Of a stretch of DNA of 64,000 nucleotides, positions 11,718-60,295 are shown in pieces. Position 1 is the first letter of the stretch, and every line of letters begins with the position of its first letter. Location: contig JAUIHP010000001.1 in the NCBI GenBank assembly GCA_030431975.1, positions 331,597 through 395,596 on the forward strand. Direction: 5' to 3'. Under the pieces are notes generated by a model. The model saw only the letters and a list, made by a program, of their open reading frames with translations. It made no database searches and was not told the DNA's origin. Position numbers and translations under genes: made by a program. The DNA is from a bacterium. Lineage in GTDB: Bacteria; Eisenbacteria; RBG-16-71-46; CAIMUX01.

Positions 11718-11930
11718 GGACTCTCCTCTAAGGAAGCGTTTTCGTTTCGCGTCCCGGGGCTGACCACGCCCTTCAGCCAAACCGGGAACCGCCTAACCCA
11801 TTGAAAAACGGCACGATAACAGACCCTCAGACGAAAAGCAATCCACCGCGTGGGCGGGCGATTCCATGACCCAAAGAACTCGTCGAGCCGTTACCATGTC
11901 CCACTCGGACTCAGTCGGAAAGGACACGCG

Positions 11931-12671
11931 TTGTATACCCTCATCATTGCCGCCTCCGTCGCCGTCATCATCAGTCTGGCCTGGGGCCTGAGTGGACTCT
12001 GGGGCGGATTTTGGCTGGGCAGCATCCTCGGTTTCATCCTGATGATCACGATCTCGGCTCTGATCACCCGCCGCATCACCAAGCGAATCGAGCCCGCCCT
12101 GAAGCAGGCGCAAAGACAAGCCGAAGGCCAGCAAGCCAAGCTCGCCATCCAGACGCTGGAGGGCCTTCTTCCTCTGGCCAAGTGGCAGGTCCTCCTGGGA
12201 AGTCAGCTCCATTCGCAGATCGGTTCCATTCAGTTCGCCACCGGCGACGAGGCGAAGGCGGCGGAGTCATTGGAAAAGTCGCACGCACGCATCGGTGAGG
12301 CGCAGATCATTCGCGCTGTGCTTCATTGGCGCAAGAAGGAGCGCGACGAAGCGGTCGCCGTCCTCGAGGATTCGGTCAAACACAACAAAAAGAATATGAT
12401 GATGCAGAACTTCCTGGCATGGATGGAGCAGCAACGCGGACAGGATGAACGAGCCCTCGCCCGTTTGCAGGAAGCGCTCAAGGCCGAGAAGGACGACAAG
12501 ATCACGCGCGAAAACCTGATGCGCGTGCAGAACGGCAAGAAGATCAGCATGAAGGCCTTCGGAATGGCCTGGTACGGCCTCAAGCTCGAGAAGGTTCCTG
12601 GATCGATGCGCCAAGGCCAACCCGCCGGCGGCTTCCGCCCGGGCTTCCGTCAGCCCAAGCGGAGACGTTAG
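11931..12671 (+). CDS. membrane protein with TPR-like C-terminal region
   Basis: TTG 11931 after GGAAAGGA; two TM segments 'LYTLIIAASVAVIISLAWGL...GFWLGSILGFILMITISALI' then helical Ala/Lys/Glu-rich region. Confidence 0.45.
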   Translation: MYTLIIAASVAVIISLAWGLSGLWGGFWLGSILGFILMITISALITRRITKRIEPALKQAQRQAEGQQAKLAIQTLEGLLPLAKWQVLLGSQLHSQIGSIQFATGDEAKAAESLEKSHARIGEAQIIRAVLHWRKKERDEAVAVLEDSVKHNKKNMMMQNFLAWMEQQRGQDERALARLQEALKAEKDDKITRENLMRVQNGKKISMKAFGMAWYGLKLEKVPGSMRQGQPAGGFRPGFRQPKRRR

Positions 12672-44300: not shown

Positions 44301-45272
44301 GAGTGTTTCCACGGAACGCTGACTGTAGGAGTCGAACTCGCGGATGGAGAGGATTTCGTCCCCATCGAACTCGATTCGAATCGGGTTGTTGCGACCGAAA
44401 CTGAAGACGTCAAGGATGCCGCCGCGACGGCTGACTTCACCGTACTCCGAAACCATCGAAACCGATTGGAAACCGTCGCCGACGAGGAGTTCCATCATGA
44501 AGTCCAGGTCGACCGAGTCACCGACACGAACGTGATGGATGGATCGCGCAAACGTTTCTTTGGACGGCACCGGCGAGAGCAGACTGACCGCCGTCACCAC
44601 GACGACACGAAGGTTCCCGCAGGCCGGCAGGCCCCCGCGACGAGCTGGATCGGAAAGAGCGGCCAGAAGTTCGATGCGGTTGGCGCGGAGAGACAATGCC
44701 GGGTGGCGCGAGTGATAGGGATCCAACCCGGGATCGGGCAAGGTCGCCACGGTTCCGCGACCGAGAAGGAACTGCAGGTCTTCCTTCAGGTCCTCCGCGG
44801 ACGCAAGGTCGGGTACGACGACGACAACCTCCCGGGCCCGCTCCGCGGCGATGGAGGCAACGAAAAGAGCGCGGGACGAACCCGCGAGTCCCCGCAGCCA
44901 AATGGGCTTGCGTGTCGACTCGTCTGCATCGAGTCGGGAGGTGACGCGACCGAAGGCCGTGGTCTTGCGGAACCGATCGACCAGGGTTTGCGCGATGGCA
45001 GATGGTCCGGCGGATGGTCCGGCAGTTCCCCCGCCGTCCGGTCCGGTGCCTGGTTTAGTGTCCGGCCCAGCATGGCCGGCAGTCCTGGCGGAACCTGCGT
45101 CTCCCGAACCGGATTCCGAGCCGGCCTTCGCGTTGGCAGATCCAGGGTCACCGGCCGCGGAGATACCTGGCTTGTTGGGACTAGAACCGGCCCCTGGCTG
45201 GCCACCCGGTGAAGATGGCGTCTTCGTGGTCACTCTTTCGATTCCTCCATCCCACTGCCGGGCCGCCCCCAA
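41355..45272 (-). CDS. mfd: transcription-repair coupling factor Mfd (N-terminal start uncertain)
   Basis: 'GDFVVHVEHGIGCF' KOW-like TRCF motif, DEAD-box helicase motifs 'GDVGYGKTEVA', 'LIIDEEQLFGV', TRG 'TATPIPRT', C-terminal TRCF domain; low-complexity G/P/S/A-rich first ~100 aa. Confidence 0.9.
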   Translation of the reverse strand: MGAARQWDGGIERVTTKTPSSPGGQPGAGSSPNKPGISAAGDPGSANAKAGSESGSGDAGSARTAGHAGPDTKPGTGPDGGGTAGPSAGPSAIAQTLVDRFRKTTAFGRVTSRLDADESTRKPIWLRGLAGSSRALFVASIAAERAREVVVVVPDLASAEDLKEDLQFLLGRGTVATLPDPGLDPYHSRHPALSLRANRIELLAALSDPARRGGLPACGNLRVVVVTAVSLLSPVPSKETFARSIHHVRVGDSVDLDFMMELLVGDGFQSVSMVSEYGEVSRRGGILDVFSFGRNNPIRIEFDGDEILSIREFDSYSQRSVETLDEVVVLPVWEWLPSAEAIRRIRENPTDGVDEDDWERMVDSLETDGTLEGIEWVLPSLGIDRVPLRDYFPENSMVVVDGPTYVRSRQNAWEADVQQAYEALEKMADPLAGHFGLTPGAPDDLFYLGEDLVEQLPSGKHIMVGSGVDLSSAPSEAQPDNGSDTGLNANPGTDKPINIVHADFRGHAHGEAATADLSTKEGRIEARIDESDGTDAGKFSFGTVPPETFGRQLDRTRGYLRTLFDRTPEMYILCDTEAHMDRLRELLHRLPAQFHVGNLANGFLMPDEGLSVLTDHEIFSRSRRRTAPRRYARGLSIKELLALSPGDFVVHVEHGIGCFKGMNRLTVDGQETDCLSLEYSGGDTLYVPVDQLMKVQKYAGGDSAKPQLSKMGGKSWAKTKAKVKKTIKDMAEELIKTYSIRKSRPGFGYSADNEYMKELEASFPFDETPDQARAIEEVKTDMESEHPMDRLICGDVGYGKTEVAVRAAFKAAQDGKQVAILVPTTLLAKQHFESFRKRLDGMPIVIDYVSRFRSTKETKEIMERVTLGQIDVLIGTHKILGKDVKFKDLGLLIIDEEQLFGVKAKEKLKKYRETVDVLTLTATPIPRTMHFSLMGGRDMSLILTPPRNRLPIQTEVLEFRDDVIAHALMQEADRGGQSFFVHNRVQTIDQMATYISNLVPHLRIAVAHGQMREKLLETVMRDFLEGEYDVLVSTMIIESGLDLPNVNTIVINRGDMFGLSQLYQLRGRVGRSSRKAYAYLLLPPHRVVTEQAQKRLKAMEEFEDLGSGYQLALRDLEIRGAGDLLGSQQSGFIISVGFELYCSLLEEAVRELKGIETVEVREPKMVTDIEAFLPEDYVPDPREKINLYKSIADARHTDELEKIAADLNDRFGKHPEPVRHLLALRRIRVLAAAGGIERVVVRDDLVQMELARDLEKSEIGELVRAVPGQVEFDLGGRHKIKMKSPGPGEAISKSLILLKALGQNA

Positions 45273-47005
45273 CCGTTGGCCGCTGCATGCACATCCACAC
45301 GGAGTGTCATCGGTTCACCGTCTGCGGAAGTGCGACACGGTACGGTCCGGGTCATGTTCCCGACGTCAACATGCACCACGTATTCGCGTCCCGGCTGCAG
45401 CCGGGCGGTCAGATGGTCGTTCATGTCGGCGCGGTCCGAACGGGTCACGCCCGCAAACACTCGCGCTCCTGATGTGTCGCGTACTTCGATTCGCGTTGGC
45501 ACTCGTTCTTCCCTCTGGTCGTAAGCGACAAAGCGGACGAGAGCCTTGCGGTCCGTGCCCGTCCGTCCGGTAGTGCGGGGAGCGTACCGATCCGTCACGT
45601 TGACGCCGTGGACGTAGTGGACATTCAGGTCCCAGGACATTGGAAAGATCGTGCCTGTCCGTTCGTAGCTCGTCGCATAGATGGCGTGAACGGGAACGTC
45701 TTTCTGCGCACGCGCCGCCCGGTCGCCGAACCAGACATCGTTGAGACGATCGCCGGCCGGCTCCGCGGCGCCGGTGTAGAACCATTCTCCGTCCCAAACC
45801 TCGACCCAGGAATGATTCCCGCTGCTGTCCGCCCAAAGCGGAGTCCCGACCAGTCGAGCCGGCACGCCAACGGAACGACACGCATGGGTCAACAGAACGG
45901 AGAGACCAGTACACGTTGCTTTCTGCTCTTCCACCACCTGAGACACAGACTGGTCGTTACGGGAACGCTCCTTCGAGTAGATGACACCGTAGTGCGGAAA
46001 GATCTCCTGGTTCAGCCGGACCGCAGCTTCCGAAGGCGACTTCGATCCGGCGACAATTTCAAGACACGTCTCCCGCAGGATGGGCCTCCAACGATCGCGC
46101 GGCTCCGTCACCGAGTAGTAAGGAAGAATGCCGTTGAGAAAGAGCTCACGTGAGACGCGGCCCTTCCACGGAGACGACTCCCACGCACGATAGGCGTAGT
46201 CGACATGTTCGAGCAGAAACTCCGCATCGAGAGTACGCAGGTCGTGGGCCGGCATGTGTTCGATGAGGAAGGCCATACCGGTCCGCTGTGCATGAGGAAC
46301 GGTCCGCCAGGCCCGTTCGATCTCGTTCCCATTGGCTCCGGCGGTGCGGACTGCAGAGGTTACGTAGTCGGGCATGGTCGCCGCAGATGAGCCGGCCGAC
46401 AGTGAGGGAGTCGCGCTGAGGACCAATGCACAGGCGCCGATGGTGGCGCTGATGAGCACACGAAGTCGTCCGGCTAGTCCGGGTAGGTCGGGTCGTCCGG
46501 GTCGTCCGGGCCATCCGGGTAGTTCGGGTAGTTCGGGTAGTTCGGGTAGTTCGGGTATTTCGGGTAGTTCGGGTAGTTCGGGTAGTTCGGGTAGTTCGGG
46601 AATGATGGACGAATCAAGCAAGCCGAGCGGTCCGGATGTAGCTTTGGCCAGCGACGGAACCATCGCGTCTCTGCGTTGCCTCCGCCCCCTCGTGGATGAC
46701 GATCGGACGGAGCCGCCGAGCCGGCCAAGCGACTGGCGTTGTCTCTCGCTTCCGGATCCGAGCTTTGGGCCACTCTCTGGCGGTCGGTTCATCTTTGACA
46801 CTCTTCTCGCCTCTCGTCGGCCTGTCGGCTCGTCGGCGTTTTGGCACTCGTCGGCCTGTCGGCTTTCGTCGGCTCGTGGGCTCGTGGGCGTTTTCGGCTC
46901 TCGTCGGCCTGTCGGCATCGTCGTTTTTGGCGCACGGCAAATGATCCGAAAGCCGAGACCTTCGCCTCCGCGTTCGGCATTCCTGCCGGAGAATCCCCGC
47001 CGCAA
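45230..47005 (-). CDS. transglutaminase-like cysteine protease domain protein (start uncertain)
   Basis: Transglutaminase core 'CTGLSVLLTHACRSVGVPARLV...GNHSWVEVWDGEWF'; candidate start GTG 46459 before hydrophobic 'LISATIGACALVLSATPSLSA'; the ORF extends to 47005 through (PEL)n repeats and an Arg/Lys-rich region. Confidence 0.6.
   Translation of the reverse strand: MRRGFSGRNAERGGEGLGFRIICRAPKTTMPTGRREPKTPTSPRADESRQADECQNADEPTGRREARRVSKMNRPPESGPKLGSGSERQRQSLGRLGGSVRSSSTRGRRQRRDAMVPSLAKATSGPLGLLDSSIIPELPELPELPELPEIPELPELPELPELPGWPGRPGRPDLPGLAGRLRVLISATIGACALVLSATPSLSAGSSAATMPDYVTSAVRTAGANGNEIERAWRTVPHAQRTGMAFLIEHMPAHDLRTLDAEFLLEHVDYAYRAWESSPWKGRVSRELFLNGILPYYSVTEPRDRWRPILRETCLEIVAGSKSPSEAAVRLNQEIFPHYGVIYSKERSRNDQSVSQVVEEQKATCTGLSVLLTHACRSVGVPARLVGTPLWADSSGNHSWVEVWDGEWFYTGAAEPAGDRLNDVWFGDRAARAQKDVPVHAIYATSYERTGTIFPMSWDLNVHYVHGVNVTDRYAPRTTGRTGTDRKALVRFVAYDQREERVPTRIEVRDTSGARVFAGVTRSDRADMNDHLTARLQPGREYVVHVDVGNMTRTVPCRTSADGEPMTLRVDVHAAANGWGRPGSGMEESKE
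46479..46600. repeat. 9-bp tandem repeat (GGGTAGTTC)n, ~13 copies; encodes (PEL)n if translated on minus strand
   Basis: 'ccgggtagttcgggtagttcgggtagttcgggtagttcgggtatttcgggtagttcgggtagttcgggtagttcgggtagttcggg' with degenerate copies upstream. Confidence 0.9.
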
Positions 47006-47163
47006 CGTTGGGATGACTCGCCGACCTCCGTCGCCAGATTCTACCTCAACTGGTCAAATCTGCACGATCTGGTATCCTCCTCCGCTGACAATTCAGATGC
47101 GTCTTTAATTCTCGTGTTGGCGGACCTGCCCGATGACGTCCGCCTCTCGTCGGGGGAGATGAA

Positions 47164-48072
47164 ATGAAGCTGATCGGACGAATCCTGAGCATGTTGGTGG
47201 GGTTGGTTCTCGCCGCCGTTGTCGCAGTTTGGTTCTTGAGCGAGCAACGACTCGGCAAGGACCATACGGCGGACGTCAGCGTCGACAGTTCGGGAATCAT
47301 GGTGACGTCCGACTCCGCCTCGGTGGCGCGCGGTCAGTACCTTGCCCACAGCTTGCTCGCGTGCACGGAGTGTCACGGTTCGGACTTCGGCGGCCAAATG
47401 TTCGTCGACTCCGGCGCAATGGGACGGATTCCCGCGACCAATCTCACGAGTGGAAAAGGAGGCCTCGGATCCTCCTATTCCGTCGAAGACTGGGACCGCG
47501 CCATTCGGCACGGCGTCGGCCGGGATGGACGGGGACTTTTCGTGATGCCGTCGGAAGCCTACGTCTACCTGACCGACGGAGAGATGAGCGACCTTCTCTC
47601 CTATCTCCAGACCGTTCCTCCTGTAGACCGTGAGTTCGCTCCGCGTTCGTTCGGCCCCATCGGCCGAATGCTCGCGGCGACAGGCCAGCCGCTCTTCCCG
47701 GTCGACCGAACCGAACACGACACGAGCCGTCCAAACACCGCGCCGGTCATCCCGGGAGTCGAACGAGGAAAGCATCTCGCCAAGGTGTCGGGTTGTGAAG
47801 CCTGCCACGGAGCCAGTCTCGCCGGCGGAAAAGTCGCCGGCGCCGATCCATCCTGGCCTCCGGCGGGCAACCTGACCCCACACGCCGAGGGGCTCGCCCG
47901 CTACGACCTCGCGTCGTTCTCGAAGGCGGTGCGGACGGGAGCGAAGGTCGACGGAACCCAGATCGATGCGAAGGTGATGCCATGGCAGAGCTACAGCGGC
48001 CTGCGTGACGAGGAACTCCGCTCGTTATGGGCCTACATGAACTCGCTGCCGGCTACAGAGACCCCGAAGTAG
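47164..48072 (+). CDS. diheme c-type cytochrome, membrane-anchored
   Basis: Two CxxCH motifs 'CTECHG' and 'CEACHG'; N-terminal TM 'ILSMLVGLVLAAVVAVWFL'. Confidence 0.75.
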   Translation: MKLIGRILSMLVGLVLAAVVAVWFLSEQRLGKDHTADVSVDSSGIMVTSDSASVARGQYLAHSLLACTECHGSDFGGQMFVDSGAMGRIPATNLTSGKGGLGSSYSVEDWDRAIRHGVGRDGRGLFVMPSEAYVYLTDGEMSDLLSYLQTVPPVDREFAPRSFGPIGRMLAATGQPLFPVDRTEHDTSRPNTAPVIPGVERGKHLAKVSGCEACHGASLAGGKVAGADPSWPPAGNLTPHAEGLARYDLASFSKAVRTGAKVDGTQIDAKVMPWQSYSGLRDEELRSLWAYMNSLPATETPK

Positions 48073-48084
48073 CCGTCTAAGTAG

Positions 48085-48176
48085 ACCCAGAGGTGGACCC
48101 GTCGGTAGTGGACGCCGAGGTGGACGCGGAGGTGGACGCCTAGGTAGACGCCCTAGGCGCGGAGGTGGACGCGTAG
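48085..48176. repeat. ~12-bp tandem repeat (GAGGTGGACGCN) x ~8 downstream of the cytochrome gene
   Basis: 'agaggtggacccgtcggtagtggacgccgaggtggacgcggaggtggacgcctaggtagacgccctaggcgcggaggtggacgcg'. Confidence 0.75.
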
Positions 48177-48327
48177 CCTGGCGACGCGAGCGTCGCGGGT
48201 ACGGCCGCTGTTGATGCGGGAGGCAGACTCAGGTGCAGCTGGCACAAGGAGACCCGCCGCCACGCATCGACTAGCGTTACGCAACGGCGGGCTCGAATCG
48301 GCACTGCTCAGCCAACGCCTGAGGGAG

Positions 48328-49602
48328 TTAGCGAATTCGAACGACTCTTGCTGCTACGGACTCCCGATCGGTGCGGAACTCGACCCAATAGGTTCCCGCC
48401 GGGACTTCTCGTCCCTGTGAGTCGCGGCCATCCCACAGGATCTCGTGTGCACCTGCTCGCAACACTTCGTTTTCGAACAGGGTCTGCACCGTCCGCCCGT
48501 TGACGTCGACGACCAGCGCAGTTGCGGACTTCGCGTCGGCCGCGAGCTGGAACGTCAATCCGGATTCACCGCGGAACGGGTTCGGGTAAGCCATGATCGT
48601 TTGTGCATCCGGCTGGTAGCCGGATCCAATGCTGCCTGGACCTCCGGGGTTTCCTGGACCGCCAGGACTTCCTGGGCCTCCAGGGCTTCCTGGGCCTCCC
48701 GGATCTCCGATACCTCCCGGGCTTCCCGGATCCACATCGGTCGTGAATTCCGGACTTCGACCGACCCCGATGGAGGCGATGGGCGCGAAGTTGTCTTCGC
48801 GCAGCAGAACCAGGTCCCACAGACCATGCTCCTCCTCGCTCAGCCATTCGACCTCGGCGGAGATTGTCTGGAAGTCACCCTCCGCGATTTCTGCTTCCCC
48901 AAAGATCCATTCGTCGGCAGGCATTCCGTTGATCGAGAGGACTTGCTGATCCGTGTCCCAACCTTCGGGGCCCCAGATCTGCCAGAGATAGACGAACTGC
49001 GTCGGTTCGTTACCGAGGTTCCAGATGTCCGCCTCGAATGTGACCGGATCGAGCGGATGAAGGAAACGATGGGACTCCTCGAAGTACCAATCCAAGCAGG
49101 ACAGGGGCTGGTCGCGTAGGGTGCCGCCCAACCACGAGGAGCCCGTGCCTTCGATGACTGCCCAGTAGCAGACCGACTCGTTGAAATCGAGTTCTTCCGG
49201 ACGTTGCATGAGTACACGAACGACCTCGCATTCCCCCGGCCACAGCGAGAAGGAAGCAGGGCTCAGGAACTCATGGTCGGGGAGCACGCCCTCCGTGCAG
49301 TCGTAGAAGATTTCACCCGGCTCCAGTCGAACGTCGTAGAAGACCTGTTCGAAGCCCCAATTGCAGACCGTGATCTCGACGACGACCTCGGAGCTTCCGC
49401 AAAAGTTGCTCGTCGTCGGGACATGCAGACCGCCACTGGTCGTAGCCTGCACGTCCTCGCCGAAAAGGAGACCGGCAAAGGCGACGGCAATGGCAACGGC
49501 AATGGCAAAGATGCATCGGGTCGGGACACGTCCGAGTTTCCGCCCGGTTCGGGTTACCAACGGCAGCCTCTGTACCCAAGCTCTCATCGTCCAATCTGTC
49601 AT
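48328..49602 (-). CDS. secreted protein with FlgD-Ig-like / T9SS-type C-terminal domain
   Basis: GGAGAGGAG SD before ATG 49602; signal 'IFAIAVAIAVAFAGLLFG'; 'PGSPGGIGDPGGPGSPGGPGSPGGPGNPGGPG' linker; CTD 'AYPNPFRGESGLTFQLA...VVDVNGRTVQTLF...AGAHEILWDGRDSQGREVPAGTYWVEFRTD'. Confidence 0.65.
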   Translation of the reverse strand: MTDWTMRAWVQRLPLVTRTGRKLGRVPTRCIFAIAVAIAVAFAGLLFGEDVQATTSGGLHVPTTSNFCGSSEVVVEITVCNWGFEQVFYDVRLEPGEIFYDCTEGVLPDHEFLSPASFSLWPGECEVVRVLMQRPEELDFNESVCYWAVIEGTGSSWLGGTLRDQPLSCLDWYFEESHRFLHPLDPVTFEADIWNLGNEPTQFVYLWQIWGPEGWDTDQQVLSINGMPADEWIFGEAEIAEGDFQTISAEVEWLSEEEHGLWDLVLLREDNFAPIASIGVGRSPEFTTDVDPGSPGGIGDPGGPGSPGGPGSPGGPGNPGGPGSIGSGYQPDAQTIMAYPNPFRGESGLTFQLAADAKSATALVVDVNGRTVQTLFENEVLRAGAHEILWDGRDSQGREVPAGTYWVEFRTDRESVAARVVRIR

Positions 49603-49659
49603 GAAGAACTCCTCTCCCAGTCGTTCTGTCCAAGGCCGCCCCATGGCTTGCACCTTTTC

Positions 49660-49965
49660 GCCGGCGTAGGCATTCCCGGACGGCTCGCGCATACCAAACC
49701 GGCTATTGCATTGCCAACCGGCTCGCACATTCCCCAACCGGCGTACGCATTCCGGGACGGCTCGCGCATACCAAACCGGCTACTGCATTGCCAACCGGCT
49801 CGCTCATTCCCAACCGGCGTACGCACTCCGGGACGGCTCTCTCATACCAGACCGGCTGGTGCATTCCCCGAGCGCACGCATTCGCCAAGCGGCGCTCGCA
49901 TTCCCTGGCCAACGCATTCCCCATCCAGCGCACGCATTGCCTACGGGCTCGCCCCTTCCCCAGCC
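49660..49965. repeat. ~76-bp tandem repeat x ~4 (progressively degenerate) with internal GCATTCC...ACCGGCT sub-repeats
   Basis: 'GCATTCCCGGACGGCTCGCGCATACCAAACCGGCTATTGCATTGCCAACCGGCTCGCACATTCCCCAACCGGCGTAC' then a near-identical copy at 49738-49813, then diverged copies. Confidence 0.85.
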
Positions 49966-50160
49966 GGCGCAGACCTCTTTCGAAGCGGGCACTGGAGTGA
50001 CCGCCTTCAAAGGAACCAACGCCGGAGTTCGGACAATTCGCACAACAAGAGTGAGCCAACTCGGTTGATCAGGATCCGCCCTTCCCGGGACGCAAACGCC
50101 ACCCTTCCTCTTCTGACGTCCCGGAGGTGTCGAGGAGAAAAACTGATGGCGGGCACTTAC

Positions 50161-50258
50161 GCCTGGTCCCGTACGACTCGTCCCGTACGACTGGTGCCGT
50201 ACGACTGGTCCCGGACGACTAGTCCCGCACTCCTGGTCCCGCACTCCTGGTCCCGTAA
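50161..50258. repeat. 14-15-bp tandem repeat (GTCCCGTACGACTNG) x 7
   Basis: 'ggtcccgtacgactcgtcccgtacgactggtgccgtacgactggtcccggacgactagtcccgcactcctggtcccgcactcctggtcccgtaag'. Confidence 0.85.
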
Positions 50259-50417
50259 GACCCTTCCAGAGGCTCGATTGAACTCTTCCGGGCTGGCGGC
50301 CGGCTGCGAGACACGCGAACCGGCACCTTCCTTGGGTTCGCAGCCCTATCTGCCAGCCATGAGCGAGTGGTCGGAGGGCAACCGGATCCTGAGCGAGTTC
50401 GGACTCGGACTTCTTCG

Positions 50418-50483
50418 GGATCGAGTCTGGTCGTGGCAGGGATCGCGGTTGGTCGAGGCGGGGATCGCGCTTGGTCGTGGCAG
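50418..50483. repeat. 18-bp tandem repeat (GGTCGTGGCAGGGATCGC) x 3
   Basis: 'gtctggtcgtggcagggatcgcggttggtcgaggcggggatcgcgcttggtcgtggcagggatcgccgctg'. Confidence 0.8.
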
Positions 50484-50630
50484 GGATCGCCGCTGACTGG
50501 GCTCCGCTCCGACCGATGAACGAGACAGTTTCCGTCTATAGTGGAATGTCGCGACTCTTCGGAGAGGCGAAAGCCGTGATGTTCGGGTCGGTCCCTGCTA
50601 TGCTCGCGCAGCGAAATGGAGGGTTCAATC

Positions 50631-51023
50631 ATGCTGCCGCGAGTCAGCGACTACATGGACACGGTCGTCCACACACTGAAGCCGGATGACGAAGTCGTCT
50701 CGGCTGTCCGGTTCCTGCTCAAGCACCAGGTGACGGGCGCGCCTGTCGTCAACGACGCTGGCGAAGTCGTCGGCATCCTCACCGAGAAGGATTGCCTTCA
50801 GCTACTGTCCTCAGGCCACCAGGCCGACTTCCCGCAGGGCAAGGTCGAAGACTTCATGACCCACAAGGTCATCACAGTCTCACCAGGGATGAACGTCTAT
50901 TTCGTCGCGGGCATGTTCCTCAACAACTACATGCGCCGCTTTCCGGTGATCGACAACGGCAAGCTCGTCGGAGCCATCACCCGCTTCGACATCCTCAGGG
51001 CAATCGACGAAAACCTTCCATAG
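50631..51023 (+). CDS. CBS domain pair protein
   Basis: Two CBS motifs ('VTGAPVVNDAGEVVGILTEKD', 'RRFPVIDNGKLVGAITRFDIL'); GGAGGG SD 7 nt before ATG 50631. Confidence 0.75.
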   Translation: MLPRVSDYMDTVVHTLKPDDEVVSAVRFLLKHQVTGAPVVNDAGEVVGILTEKDCLQLLSSGHQADFPQGKVEDFMTHKVITVSPGMNVYFVAGMFLNNYMRRFPVIDNGKLVGAITRFDILRAIDENLP

Positions 51024-51065
51024 CCAGCTTTCCGACCCCGGGCCCCGGACCGTGGCCCGGACCCA

Positions 51066-51140
51066 GGGCGCGGCCCCTGGCCTCCGAACTCCAGGACTCT
51101 GGGCGCGGACCCTGGCCTCCGAACTCCAGGACTCTGGCCG
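51066..51140. repeat. 35-bp direct repeat x 2 containing the palindromic core CCAGGACTCTGG
   Basis: 'gggcgcggcccctggcctccgaactccaggactct' repeated immediately after the CBS gene stop. Confidence 0.7.
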
Positions 51141-51326
51141 CGAAACCCTAGGCTTGGGGCTGCCCCTAAAGTTTGGACCCGAATCCGGGCGTGGGTTCGA
51201 ACAGAGACCAGGGCCCAACTTGGGCGTGAACTAGAACCTGGACTGGGGCTTGCACCGGGCTCGGACCGGAACCGGAATTCGAGAGACCCGGGCCATCACC
51301 GATCTCGTCGGCCCGACGGAGTCAGG

Positions 51327-51845
51327 CTAGCCGAGTTTGCTGCGAAGCCTTGTCATGATGGCCAGATGGTGGTCATCGTGTTCCGCGACAAAAAAGCATA
51401 GGTCGATGACTCGCATGGGTTGCTGCAGCCGCGGATGGAGCGAGGTCGATGCCGCCTCCTCCGGGCTCATCTTCTCGAGTCGATCGACGAGTTCCGATCG
51501 GGACTGCCGAAATCCATCCGTAAGCTCCACGAGCTTGCGGCTATTGTGCTCAGCCTCATAGGTCTTCGCGTTGGTCAGGTCCGCAGCCCGCAGCACGGCC
51601 TCCCCGGCCAGGAAGTCCTCGATCCGCCCCAGCCAGAGTGACTCCAAGTCCCAGAGATGACCGATATGCTCCTGGAAGGACCAGTCCTCCCCATCGCGAA
51701 TCGTCAGAATCGCCGGTGGCGTCGTCGCACAGTGTTCCTCGACACGAACCGGCGCGCCACGAAGTCGCTCGACGAGCGTCGGGAACAGCTCCTGGGGAGG
51801 CTCGTACGGAAACTCCCGCTCGAACCATTTCGTCAGATCGAACAT
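51327..51845 (-). CDS. DinB-family (DinB_2) metal-dependent protein
   Basis: 'HIGHLWDLE' and 'AEHDDHHLA' His motifs of DinB/YfiT fold; ATG 51845. Confidence 0.65.
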   Translation of the reverse strand: MFDLTKWFEREFPYEPPQELFPTLVERLRGAPVRVEEHCATTPPAILTIRDGEDWSFQEHIGHLWDLESLWLGRIEDFLAGEAVLRAADLTNAKTYEAEHNSRKLVELTDGFRQSRSELVDRLEKMSPEEAASTSLHPRLQQPMRVIDLCFFVAEHDDHHLAIMTRLRSKLG

Positions 51846-52429
51846 CTCGCCCTCCTCCGTCGATGGCTCACGCACGGCTGACGCTTCAAGAGGACACTAA
51901 GCCCCTCAGCCTCGAGGCGTGCATCGAGAATGCATGCCACCGATCGAAAACGTCCTCCGACTTCGTTCTTTCGTTTGATGCACACCGGAACCTTGGGAGA
52001 CCGGGAGCAGTTCCGACTCCAGCGTCAACTACTCGGTGCAGGACTTCGACCCGTCCGTCCTTGGCTCTGCAAAAAGCGAACCTACCCGAGCGCGTTTGAA
52101 CTACGAAGAAGCAATTGGCCCAGCGGATCCGGCGCGACGGCTGCCGGTTGAAGCTGAAGAAGATCTCACCCATTACCCGGGCACGAACCATTGCGAACAG
52201 CCGTACTGGCACGATGAGCGCACCCGCCGCGGGTACAGACGAATTCGCAGGGCCGGACCCAACAGGCAACTGCAGTTCGCGCGATGCCGCACCCGCAGCG
52301 GGTACAGATTCCGATTCACCTATTGTTATCACCTATAGTTATTGCCGACGCGTTGTCGATTCGAGACGTGGATTCGCCGACGACGATCCCGCTGGTCCGT
52401 TGTTTGCAGGACTGTCGGACGACCGCGAC

Positions 52430-52660
52430 GATCTCTCGCCGGGTTCGTTATGTCGGGTTCGTTATGTCGGGTTCGTTCATCACGTCGTTTCGCAAGGTCG
52501 TTCGTCAGGCTCGTTCGTCAGGTTCGTTCGTCGGGTTGGGTCCTCGGGTTGGGTCCTCGGGTTGGGTCCTCGGGTTGGGTCCTCGGGTTGGGTCGTCAGG
52601 CTCGCTTTGTCAGGTTTGTTCGTCGGGTTTGTCTCGTCAGGTGCGCCCGTCCTTGGGGGG
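52430..52660. repeat. array of related ~13-bp tandem units (GGGTTCGTTATGTC x3; GNTCGTTCGTCAG x3; GGGTTGGGTCCTC x5; degenerate tail)
   Basis: 'cgggttgggtcctcgggttgggtcctcgggttgggtcctcgggttgggtcctcgggttgggtcgtcagg' flanked by 'gggttcgttatgtcgggttcgttatgtc' and 'caggctcgttcgtcaggttcgttcgtcggg'. Confidence 0.85.
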
Positions 52661-53006
52661 GCGACGCCATGTGGGAACGTCGGACAGGGATTCGTTCGCG
52701 ACTCCCGGCGTCGGGGCTCCGATGTTCACGACTCCGACAACCTTCCTTGCATTTTGGTCGGGGCTTGGTCGTCGGGCGGATTGGCCTGTCTCGGAAACGT
52801 AGGTCTTCGATCTGCGAATCCGCTGCAGTTTCTTCGTAACCGGTGAGCTCGACCCTACATCGAACAAATGTTCGCTTCGGCGCATCCGCACTCTGGTAAA
52901 CAAGTCATAGGCGCCCCTATTGAGGTGTGCCGCCGTCACCGGGGCCGGAAAGACGGCAGCTTGAAGCCGGACTGATTCCGCGAGGTTTTAACAACGGAAG
53001 GACCCT

Positions 53007-54786
53007 GTGATCGACGCCACAACTCATAGCAATCCGACCGTTGGCAGATGCGAGTCAGGTCAGGGCCAGGTCGCACCACCGAAAGAGAGACTGACGTCCC
53101 GATGCACAATCGAGGCACGTAGAGTCTCGCTTCGGCAACTGAACGACGGCCACTTGCTCCATCAAATGGGGCGCCTGCGAGAACGGGAACGACGAACGCT
53201 CCTCGACATGTTGCTCCATCTCAACGAGGTGTACCGAAGGAAGCTTCACCTTCGCGAGGGTTACGGTTCCATGTTCCGGTACTGCACGGACGCTCTCGAG
53301 TATTCGAAGTCCGCCGCATGCCGGCGGATCCAGGCTGCGCGCTGCCTTGGGCGGTTTCCGACGCTGGACCGCTGGATCGAGAAGGGTGAGATCCGAGTCA
53401 GTCACCTGTGTTTGATCGAACCGGTTCTAAGCCCGAAGAATCTCGACTCGATGATCCATGCGATCAGGGGCAGGACCCAGGCCGAGGGTGGAGCAAATCG
53501 TCGCCCGACACCGGCCGCCCGTTGCCGGTCGAGAGAAGGTGCAACCTGTGAGCATCAGGACAACTTCCGTCCGACCGGGCGGCCCAGACACCGACCGTTC
53601 AACCGAAGTGGCTCAGTCCGGCATCGGACCCAGAATTGCTCGGAACACCGGAGCCAATGCCAATCTCGGTATCACGGCTCGCGCCGACGCCGGTTCGGCA
53701 ACTACCGCCCCGGCGACCGCAGTTCCGAAACCGTTCGCGTCGGACAATGCTGCGTTCGGACACAATGCTGCATCGGACCCTACTACCTCGGCCAACACCA
53801 TTTCGAACGCCGCCAGCTCAACCATTGGTGTCGCCACATCCGACACCGTTGGCCCCTCGGCCGAGCACATCGCATTGGACTCGTCGGACTCCTCGGACTC
53901 GTCGAACTCATCGAACTCGTCGGACTCGTCGGATTCTTCGAGCTCTTCGGGCTCCTCGGGCTCGTTGGGATTTCGCGTCTCATTGGTGTTGTCGCCCAAG
54001 CAGATGGAGAAACTGGAGCGAGTCGTTCAATTGGTTGCGCCCGGGCACCGCTGCCAAGGCACGATGGCCCACGCGCTCGAGAAGGCGATGGACCTGTTTA
54101 TCAAGCAGAACTGTCCGCTGGAAAGGGATGCTCGCCGGGTCGCGAGAGCCACTCAGCAGACCTCGCTGCGCGGCCAAGCGCCTGATCACAACATCGCCGC
54201 AGCGCCGGCCGAGACCGCCCCGGCAACACGCTCGCAGGCAGAGGCCGAACGACGGCACGGCAAGAGCGAGGTCGACACGAAACAAGTCGACACCAAGACG
54301 GTCGACTCCGAACGAATCGACGGTGAGGCGCCCGATACGAAGTCGTTCGACGGTGAGGCGGTCGACGATGAAGCGAGTAAGTCTGGGCGGACGGACATTG
54401 AAGCGGTCGACTCTGGACGGAATGACGGTGAAGCGGGCAACTCTGAACGGAAGGCCCCTGAAGCGGTCGACTCTGAACAGAACGACGCGGTTGGTTGCAC
54501 ACAACGGGCGCGTGACTCTCTGGATCCACTGCCGACCAAGCTACGCGATCGAGTCCTTGCTCGGGACGGTGGGCGCTGCACTTTCGTCGGCCCCGGAGGC
54601 CACCAATGTGGTGCGACACGACGGCTGGAAGTGGACCACATCATCCCACGCGGCAAGGGAGGGGAAACAACCGCAGAGAATCTCAGAACTCTGTGCCGCG
54701 CACACAACCAATTCGAGGCTGACAAAGCCTACGGCCGGAAGTTCATGGAACAACACCGCCGCCACACCGAGCGGCGGCAAGAATGA
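53007..54786 (+). pseudogene. frameshifted HNH endonuclease of the DUF222/'13E12-repeat' type
   Basis: Frame 0 (53007-~53470) has a DUF222-like N-terminus ('GYGSMFRYCTDALEYSKSAACRRIQAARCLGRFPTLDRWIEKGEIRVSHLCLIEP'); frame +1 (53458-54786) carries a Ser/Asp-rich linker and C-terminal HNH ('CTFVGPGGHQCGATRRLEVDHIIPRGKGGETTAENLRTLCRAHN'); the frame 0 continuation after ~53470 is nonsense. Confidence 0.5.
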
Positions 54787-54912: not shown

Positions 54913-55090
54913 CGAGCTCGGGCGTCGAGCTCGGGCGTCGAGCTCGGGCGTCGGGCTCGGGTGCCGCGCTCGGGCGCGTGCTCGGGTGCCGCGCTCGGGC
55001 GCGCACTCAGGCGTCGGGCTCGGGTGCCGCGCTCGGGCGCGAGCTCAGGCGCCGTGCTCGGGTGCCGTGCTCGGGCGCGCTCGGGTGTGT
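54913..55090. repeat. 12-13-bp tandem repeat (GCTCGGGCGYSN) x ~14
   Basis: 'gagctcgggcgtcgagctcgggcgtcgagctcgggcgtcgggctcgggtgccgcgctcgggcgcgtgctcgggtgccgcgctcgggcgcg...'. Confidence 0.85.
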
Positions 55091-56958: not shown

Positions 56959-57276
56959 CGGCGGACTATACGGCCCCAAAGTCGCAGCTGTCCAGATCCG
57001 GCCGCCGGCAGACGGGCGGGACCGAGCAACTCCATGAACGCCGCCGCCAGGCGCGGACGGGCCCATACGCCGGAGGAAACTGGACGCGCACTATGCGGGC
57101 GGGTGGGAACCCGCGCCTAACGAAGCTGGACGCCGCACCGGGCAGTTGGGCACCCGTGCCTCACAAAAGCCGGTCGCTGTCTTGGGCAGTTGGGCACCCG
57201 TGCCTCAGAAGAGCTGGTCGCTGTCGTGGTGGACCGGCGGCTCACGAACCCTGCCGCTGCGGCCGATGCCTGCAGT

Positions 57277-57837: not shown

Positions 57838-57849
57838 CCCCGGCACCCG

Positions 57850-58145
57850 ACGGGATCCGCGTTCCAGCCTACGACGAAATCCGTGCTCCAGCCTCCGACG
57901 GCATCCGCGCTCCAGCACCCAGCGGAATCCGTGGTCCAACACCCGACGGAATCCGCGTTCCAGCACCCCCCGACAGAGTCCGCGTTCCACCACCTGGCGG
58001 AATCCGCGTTCCGGCACCCGACGAAATCCGTGCTTCAGCCTCCGACGGAACCCGCGCTCCAGCACCCGACGGAACCCGTGCTCCAGCCTCCGACGAAATC
58101 CGTGCTTCAGCCTCTGACGGAACCCGCGCTGCAACACCCGGCGGC
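57850..58145. repeat. 24-bp tandem repeat x ~12, consensus CCGACGGAATCCGCGYTCCAGCAC
   Basis: 'ccgacgaaatccgtgctccagcctccgacggcatccgcgctccagcacccagcggaatccgtggtccaacacccgacggaatccgcgttccagcacccc...'; no convincing ORF in any frame. Confidence 0.85.
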
Positions 58146-59605: not shown

Positions 59606-59776
59606 GGTCGAATCCTGTCGCGAGGGTTTCCGTTCTGCCGAAGTCAGGAGATCCTCGCACACGAAAGTGGCGAGGATCGCCGGGAGGATAGCCCCTACAC
59701 CCAGACATGTCGCGGACGGAGTCGGTCAGCAAAAGCAGGCAAGCGCGACGGGCTTTGTCCCGGACTTAGTTCCGGG

Positions 59777-60295
59777 CTACTTCCAGGCTTGGGTCTGGGC
59801 TTCGTTCCGGGCTCGCTTCCCGGTTCGGTTCTTTGCGGCTTTCGACAAAGCCCTGGAGGGGTCGCGGGTCAGGGTCTTGATGAACTCGGTCCGCCGAAGT
59901 CGCAGCGCAGACCAATCCGCGTCGACGGCGACAACGCGGACCGGCTCGAAGCCCGCCTCGCCGAAGCCTTCCCAACCGTGGTCGCGGTCAAACTCGCCGG
60001 TGTAGAGCTTCGACGTCTTCTTCGGATAGGCGACCCAGAGGACGGCGTCGCCCTCCGTCTTCGTCGAGACCTTCTTCGCGGCCGCGTTCAGTTGCTTCTG
60101 CGTTTGCGCGAACACGACTACGAAGTCGAAGGTCTTTTTCTCCGACCACCTTCTGGCGACACTCACAGCCGACGGAAGGAACTCGAACTCACGCTCAAAA
60201 CTCTCGGGAGCGTCGACAACCAGAATCGGACTTTGTTGCTTCAGCTGAAGCTTGTCGAAGACACAAGGCACGCGCTTACGTGCGCCCTGTCGCAT
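59777..60295 (-). CDS. hypothetical protein
   Basis: ATG 60295 'MRQGARKRVPCVFDKLQLKQQSPILVVDAPESF...'; overlaps the upstream stop by 20 nt; the track ORF start 60499 is upstream with a low-complexity N-terminus. Confidence 0.35.
   Translation of the reverse strand: MRQGARKRVPCVFDKLQLKQQSPILVVDAPESFEREFEFLPSAVSVARRWSEKKTFDFVVVFAQTQKQLNAAAKKVSTKTEGDAVLWVAYPKKTSKLYTGEFDRDHGWEGFGEAGFEPVRVVAVDADWSALRLRRTEFIKTLTRDPSRALSKAAKNRTGKRARNEAQTQAWK

Follow-up and report, generated by a model that had tools for sequence, protein, structure and literature searches.

Within the analysed stretch of 64,000 nucleotides (the window; part of contig JAUIHP010000001.1 from an uncultured bacterium of the Eisenbacteria), a non-coding spacer of 1,161 bp (51846-53006) separates a gene of the DinB family on the minus strand from a divergently oriented gene of an HNH endonuclease on the plus strand. 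Our analysis leads us to regard it as probably a divergent intergenic (promoter) spacer, inflated by minisatellite DNA of slippage origin and situated beside a decaying HNH gene of a multi-copy family. The preliminary description of this DNA had reported here a non-coding stretch of about 1.1 kb (51876-53006), which turned out to be a real spacer, its left border being moved to 51846. The inflation is supported by comparison with two loci of DinB homologues, which differ in their contexts and have upstream gaps of 115-198 bp versus the 1,161 bp observed here.

The compound minisatellite of 13/14-bp units occupies positions 52436-52642 (plus strand). Tandem Repeats Finder (TRF) describes it as 15.7 copies with a period of 13 and 81 % matches, which bears out the 13-bp array placed earlier at 52430-52660 and corrects its span; by the criterion of head-to-tail units of 10-100 bp it is a minisatellite. 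Parsed into units, it contains a 14-mer repeated 2.7 times (52440-52477), two TCAGGYTCGTTCG units and five identical TCGGGTTGGGTCC units (52531-52595), with degenerate units on either side of the latter. The plus strand of the array is G+T-rich (G 0.37, T 0.35, A 0.05), and its core had no match in viral contigs. Two canonical G-quadruplex (G4) motifs lie inside the array; enrichment of such motifs was rejected, since the window contains 9 of them versus 8.9 in shuffled sequences. A CRISPR was likewise rejected, as the 13-bp units lack spacers. Directly after the array there is a run of seven guanines (G7; 52655-52661, plus strand), the only homopolymer of at least 7 nucleotides in the 64 kb; it falls within a predicted GC-rich hairpin.

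The reality of the arrays and of their borders follows from the fact that Logan contigs match the window and yet stop inside arrays. Two contigs of the run ERR3428548, L081 (window 46571-52560) and L082 (52565-54976), agree with the window at 100 % identity. Each of them ends within a tandem array, after approximately k-1 bases of a block of identical units, where de Bruijn assemblers are known to break. Thus, short-read assemblies of the host break at its arrays, in this region at 52560, 52565 and 54976. These contigs confirm the borders of the arrays, while the copy number of the five identical units rests on one assembly.

The AT-rich patch at 52316-52342 (plus strand) consists of 2.1 copies of the 13-bp unit TCACCTAT[T/A]GTTA (TRF; 0 of 100 shuffles) and is read as a nascent tandem repeat. 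With its GC content of 30 %, it is one of only two 27-nt sites with GC of 30 % or less in the 64 kb. So the patch stands as an AT-rich element and, moreover, as a tandem duplication, although the genome GC content of 65 %, against which it had been set, does not (the GC content of the window is 62.1 %). Elsewhere in the window, strong AT-richness is confined to one patch (acacaacaaaaagaatatgatgatg, 12364-12417), located within a coding open reading frame (ORF), 11850-12671.

The formation of the spacer could be imagined as follows. Replication slippage or unequal recombination would first duplicate a short unit, the AT-rich patch with its 13-bp unit in 2.1 copies representing this nascent stage, and the duplicated units would then expand and contract. 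Expansion would be newest where the units are identical (5 x 13 bp and 2.7 x 14 bp) and of earlier date in the degenerate units towards the edges. Such a process would operate throughout this part of the genome. Coding DNA would keep only those arrays whose periods are multiples of three, whereas spacers would keep arrays of any period. What is left of the spacer as unique DNA would presumably contain a promoter for each of the divergent genes, as well as the long 5' leader of the HNH family. This unique DNA comprises 51846-52218, upstream of the DinB gene, which contains no repeats (folding z-score +0.83) and presumably holds the promoter of this gene, and the 364-nt leader 52643-53006 (plus strand; folding z-score -0.37) upstream of the HNH ORF.

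As arrays fill most of the spacers at 46-62 kb, the array of the spacer appears to be a property of the genome rather than of the locus. TRF detected 24 arrays of at least 40 bp, covering 4.2 % of the window, versus a median of about 0.3 % at 40 related guaA loci (0.2-0.7 % where the contig exceeds 0.5 Mb). About 13 of the arrays are intergenic, and they are found whether the spacer is divergent, convergent or co-directional. At 46-62 kb nearly each spacer has an array of its own; besides the one discussed above, TRF places arrays of this region at 46471-46600, 46807-46923, 48108-48157, 49661-49942, 50158-50261, 50417-50490, 51059-51142, 54913-55079, 57096-57229, 57843-58144 and 59749-59831. 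Their units (9-77 bp) are mutually unrelated, which indicates that the arrays arose independently; a shared 'TCGGG' core was considered and rejected, since inspection by eye showed it in no more than about 4 of 15 intergenic arrays. The period is a multiple of three in 11 of the 12 arrays located in genes versus 5-6 of the 13 intergenic ones (Fisher p = 0.011 to 0.030). This split points to a general duplication process filtered by reading-frame selection.

With an approximate re-implementation of the SATFIND criterion, we counted 5 clusters in these 64 kb of the genome, i.e., about 78 per Mb with a 95 % confidence interval of 25-182, which corresponds to the range of Methanosarcina. Among prokaryotic groups the median is 0-3 satellites per Mb, Mycobacterium tuberculosis having about 5 and Xanthomonas campestris about 4, while the satellite-rich prokaryotes include Methanosarcina (60-89 per Mb, the richest reaching 89), Leptospira interrogans, Burkholderia mallei/pseudomallei and Chloroflexus aurantiacus (Subirana and Messeguer, 2019; PMC6749651). 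Like the satellite-rich genomes, the window harbors many short (10-30 nt), unique, non-coding satellites, and its periods within genes are multiples of three. However, its host is a GC-rich uncultured bacterium and not an archaeon like Methanosarcina; there are no transposed satellite families here, in contrast to Leptospira; and, in contrast to Burkholderia and Chloroflexus, the units are not derived from a single hexamer to octamer. We tentatively suggest that the density of non-coding minisatellites in this host may be one otherwise reported only for Methanosarcina, with independent arrays in most spacers, although the opposite seems to us the better guess. If the suggestion is true, replication or repair in this lineage would have some peculiarity of its own, or the arrays would have a role under selection, be it that of spacers or of protein- or G4-forming elements, and the locus considered here would be a textbook case, in which a duplication at its nascent stage, a compound array in its mature form and a homopolymer lie next to one another.

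The second component of our explanation is the state of the HNH endonuclease gene (53007-54786, plus strand; Pfam HNH), which starts with GTG at 53007, the sequence GGAAGGA being located 5 nt ahead. The gene carries a +1 frameshift, the run GGG at 53486-53488 containing one G too many; deletion of base 53487 gives a continuous frame of 592 aa. The extra G is also present in the Logan L082 assembly of ERR3428548, so that the frameshift noted earlier is confirmed at 53487 in two assemblies. A programmed frameshift was considered in view of a Shine-Dalgarno-like GAGGGTGGAG at the site; however, there is no slow or stop codon, and the three frames are open by composition, so this candidate was rejected. 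The repaired protein is 592 aa long versus 340-500 aa in the homologues. In-frame 9-bp (SDS-rich) and 30-bp (EAVDS-type) repeats (53877-53965 and 54347-54487) enlarge its linker regions and make it approximately 150-200 aa longer than the homologues. Its log-likelihood ratio (LLR) per codon is 0.08-0.14 versus 0.24-0.44 for the neighbours. This gene is a decaying copy: frameshifted, repeat-bloated and atypical in codon usage. As to its earlier label 'DUF222-HNH', the first half has to be withdrawn since Pfam DUF222 (PF02720) does not match the repaired protein even at E≤10. Pfam finds only HNH/HNH_5, the HNH motif (PF01844, 6.3e-8) being located at residues 534-565, and PF02720 is present in one of the 120 best HNH homologues.

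The family to which this gene belongs behaves in other bacteria as multi-copy and probably selfish DNA. It is represented by 469 matches below 1e-10, labelled HNH endonuclease or McrA, its paralogues being numerous in each Anaeromyxobacter genome and many of its members being located on very short contigs. Between two paralogous loci of Anaeromyxobacter sp. SG64 (GCA_022690745.1; L098 4523-5000 and L099 4525-5000) the identity is 82 % beginning about 478 bp upstream of the ATG, 100 % over the final 80 or so nucleotides of the leader and about 82 % in the ORFs themselves, which suggests either a conserved leader element or a recent gene conversion. All five homologue loci examined have a non-coding upstream gap of 0.43-0.76 kb; no tandem arrays were found in these five gaps, and no Rfam family in the five loci. 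Long leaders therefore seem to be a trait of the HNH family, and the arrays a trait of this genome. Since the family is multi-copy, the leader is shared in SG64 and all five loci are gapped, the right-hand third of the spacer may belong to the HNH unit. The leaders of the homologues showed no DNA or peptide similarity to the leader in the window, nor to one another outside the SG64 pair, and a leader conserved among the HNH homologues was rejected as the similarity is confined to this pair.

One more element of the spacer is a pair of 21-nt direct repeats with the consensus CGCACCCGC[C/A]GCGGGTACAGA, located on the plus strand at 52219-52239 (CGCACCCGCCGCGGGTACAGA) and 52288-52308 (CGCACCCGCAGCGGGTACAGA). 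Their existence was indicated already in the preliminary description and is supported by a pattern search (0 of 100 shuffles gave two or more matches), but the repeats are 21 and not 20 nt long and begin at 52219 and 52288, 69 nt apart, instead of about 52207 and about 52286, some 80 bp apart. Each copy contains the palindrome ACCCGC-N-GCGGGT. The similarity of the flanks of the two copies is within chance (p ~0.14), so the repeat is to be regarded as a discrete element, and its origin from an old 69-bp tandem duplication was rejected. No third copy was found in the 64-kb window at up to 3 mismatches; as to dispersal of the REP/BIME type (repetitive extragenic palindromes and bacterial interspersed mosaic elements), the 64 kb show only the two adjacent copies. 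A metagenome collection gave 13 exact matches, whose flanks are unrelated, and a widespread element was rejected, for these matches lie in unrelated contexts. Most simply, the duplicated palindrome is a pair of putative binding sites for a dimeric protein.

Several other explanations of the spacer have to be weighed. That it contains no plausible gene, as was stated earlier, is backed by codon statistics, although a gene caller placed on the NCBI contig, which is 520,985 bp long and contains further proteins of this locus, an unnamed predicted ORF of 210 aa (P0244; 52214-52846, plus strand). It could be taken for a real protein gene or for the decayed remnant of a repeat protein, the more so as the 21-nt repeats, being 69 nt (23 codons) apart, both read APAAGTD in its frame and weak matches to adhesin-type repeats were obtained. 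However, a six-frame codon scan, whose model had been derived from eight clear genes of the window, revealed no positive frame anywhere in 51846-53006, and the ORFs of the spacer have flat GC contents at the three codon positions (GC1/2/3 of about 0.6/0.55-0.6/0.6 versus about 0.66/0.46/0.73 in real genes). For the P0244 part at 52115-52435 these values are 0.61/0.61/0.61 and the LLR per codon is about 0.05, versus 0.24-0.44 for the neighbours. P0244 has no Pfam match, and a HMMER search against 1.84 billion representative proteins retrieved P0244 itself and two giant repeat proteins, whose matches are single alignments of 25-28 bits amplified by 10-14 repeats of the target and differ from each other. 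Since the G+T-rich units of the array lack stop codons, none of the three forward frames is interrupted within it. As P0244 has flat GC1/2/3 values and no real homologue and runs through an array with a period of 13 bp, we judge it to be a spurious gene call. A hidden gene or pseudogene was sought by the codon scan, per-ORF statistics, Pfam, exact look-ups and HMMER and was rejected, the outcome being this one orphan call; a real gene at this place is most unlikely. A structured non-coding RNA would agree with the length of the region without genes, with the ability of the two palindrome copies to pair in the predicted fold and with a stable hairpin predicted after the array, yet we consider it very unlikely. 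Rfam gave no match in the spacer at gathering thresholds; relaxing the limit to E≤10 brought up mir-638 alone, which with its 20 bits (gathering score 87) is obviously a chance match; the folding z-scores of the spacer (-1.39, -0.37 and +0.83) are unremarkable, and there is no promoter/terminator pair around any candidate. The suggested regulatory RNA locus is thus not supported, and no tRNA was detected in 45-60 kb.

As for mobility, the preliminary description had supposed a junction or remnant of a mobile element, and in its developed form this idea means that a selfish HNH cassette (approximately 51.9/52.6-55.1 kb) has been inserted and that the spacer forms its left junction, some of the non-coding DNA being the leader or recognition region of the element. 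The multiplicity of the paralogues in Anaeromyxobacter, often on very short contigs, the shared SG64 leader, the gaps at the five homologue loci and the atypical codon usage of the HNH gene all agree with such a cassette, and so does the finding that none of the related genomes examined has DinB next to guaA. However, no target-site duplication or terminal inverted repeats beyond chance were found bracketing 51.9-55.1 kb; the inverted pairs around this block (14-22 nt, 73-94 % complementary) fall on array sequence. Neither a recombinase nor a transposase is encoded within about 10 kb (Pfam on the neighbours), tRNA genes are lacking, and the GC content is unchanged across the block. The spacer has no blastn match to phage or plasmid DNA, by which an origin from either was rejected. 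The second array, located in the spacer on which the HNH gene and guaA converge (54913-55079, plus strand; 13 copies of the 12/13-bp units CTCGGGCGTCGAG / CTCGGGTGCCGCG by TRF), aligns with the first one in blastn at 62.7 % over 142 nt, but the similarity of their units is below the maximum of the null distribution. For this reason the two flanking arrays were rejected as a duplicated target or as members of one satellite family. Furthermore, the leader in the window resembles those of the homologues neither in DNA nor in peptide, and there is only one HNH copy in the 64 kb. The absent synteny says little, because at such a phylogenetic distance it is unconserved anywhere: among the relatives found by GuaA in a species-representative collection, the closest genomes (metagenome-assembled genomes, or MAGs, labelled Gemmatimonadota, Latescibacterota, Eisenbacteria or 'bacterium') have 71-72 % GuaA identity, none of those examined has a DinB or HNH gene adjoining guaA, and in DinB the best homologue, out of 5.8 billion clusters, reaches 66 % identity. 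The mobile junction is therefore not upheld, and we regard a cassette as unlikely. To about the same low degree we would credit the spacer with being a working regulatory region, in which the palindromes would act as operators, the AT-rich patch as a promoter or DNA-bending element, and the array with the G7 run as a contingency spacer of variable length for DinB or HNH. The location between divergent genes, the discrete duplication of the palindromic element within unrelated flanks, the rarity of AT-rich sites like this one, the slippage-prone blocks of identical units and the longest homopolymer of the window adjoining the array are what one would expect of such a region. On the other hand, the palindromes are 375-460 bp away from the start of DinB and about 700 bp from that of HNH, no regulator gene is adjacent, a consensus scan of the spacer revealed no sigma-70-like promoter, similar arrays occupy convergent spacers, where promoter action is impossible, and the downstream HNH gene is frameshifted.

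We thus return to the inflated promoter spacer beside a decaying HNH gene, to which there are objections of its own. The absence of a sigma-70-like site, just mentioned, tells against a promoter spacer too; the discrete duplicated palindrome and the rare AT-rich patch are unexplained by slippage alone and hint at function. The distance of the closest genomes means that the copy-number variation and the ancestral length of the spacer are inferred and not observed, and the two assemblies sharing the HNH frameshift may come from the same reads. The set of related loci used to estimate the repeat density consists partly of short-read MAG contigs, which are prone to break at arrays and hence under-represent them, though the relatives with long contigs still show low values. 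Finally, the density was measured on 64 kb and could reflect a regional cluster, such as has been reported for C. difficile.

Among the known systems, bacterial minisatellites, or variable-number tandem repeats (VNTRs), are the closest in structure; they are exemplified by the mycobacterial interspersed repetitive units (MIRU-VNTR) of Mycobacterium tuberculosis and by the VNTRs of Burkholderia and Yersinia. Here, too, units of 9-77 bp stand head to tail, mostly in intergenic positions, short-read assemblies break at them, and the blocks of identical units are edged by degenerate ones, as slippage or unequal crossover predicts. However, while VNTRs are defined by copy-number polymorphism, the likeness here is one of array structure; MIRUs are dispersed related units, whereas each array here has its own unit, and the density is far above the approximately 5 satellites per Mb of M. 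tuberculosis (PMC6749651).

The HNH gene, in its turn, recalls the REP13E12/DUF222-HNH ('13E12 repeat') genes of mycobacteria, which combine an HNH domain with an N-terminal helical domain, are multi-copy in some genomes and often degenerate. The gene in the window is also a degenerate copy from a multi-copy family, encoding an HNH nuclease with an N-terminal helical domain; unlike the mycobacterial genes, it has no PF02720 match and is single in the window, and the mobility of its family is putative. Plasmid or phage iterons and arrays of the parC/parS type resemble the spacer by direct repeats of approximately 10-22 bp in non-coding DNA near an AT-rich patch. But no rep or par gene was found among the neighbours (Pfam) and no plasmid or phage match; there are no DnaA boxes in the spacer (3 box-like sites in the 64 kb versus 3.5 expected) and no switch of GC skew was found, and comparable arrays are present in most neighbouring spacers. 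An oriC or iteron origin, lacking DnaA boxes, skew switch and rep gene, was accordingly rejected. The phase-variable promoter repeats of host-adapted pathogens share with the spacer a slippage-prone tract and a homopolymer between divergent genes, but their units are of 1-7 nt versus 13 nt here, the array is hundreds of bp away from either start, and the downstream gene is broken.

Taken by itself, the locus is of little importance, being a repeat-bloated promoter spacer by a broken nuclease gene, and it should not carry any gene annotation. The arrays would make natural markers for strain typing. The density of repeats around the locus is more interesting than the locus itself: if it holds genome-wide, the host ranks with the most satellite-rich prokaryotes described and is a candidate for studying the limits on bacterial minisatellite formation.

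The DinB-family gene at the left border of the spacer (51327-51845, minus strand; Pfam DinB_2, 9.7e-15) starts with the ATG at 51845, just before which GGAGGAGG is located. NCBI and Logan both contain its 172-aa product in exactly this form, and its coding statistics are an LLR per codon of 0.28 and GC1/2/3 of 0.68/0.40/0.75. A 15-nt motif, GCWCGAACCATTKCG, is present both in the first codons of this gene (51818-51832) and 350 bp upstream of it (52181-52195); its direct GAAC repeats recall some LexA boxes, but their spacing fits no box known to us, and the coincidence may be due to chance. On the other side, guaA (57066 down to 55135, minus strand) converges on the HNH gene. According to Pfam, the genes within about 10 kb on either side encode Mfd, cytochrome c, a CBS protein, DinB, GuaA, MgtE and BatA.

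Another gene-poor divergent spacer of about 1 kb (49603-50615) contains three arrays with periods of 77/38, 14 and 22 and is probably the 'first' such stretch of the preliminary description. An ORF of 116 aa (P0006, 50146-50496), called both in NCBI and in Logan, has no Pfam match and an LLR per codon of about 0, and may be spurious. Farther to the left, in the ORF 46374-47108 (plus strand), a 9-bp array of CGGGTAGTT in 14.4 copies (46471-46600) is translated into a Gly-X-Y pattern (Pfam Collagen, 7e-7), while the minus-strand ORF 45230-47005, which overlaps it, has almost no coding signal. It is within this 9-bp array that the other end of the Logan contig L081 (46571) falls.

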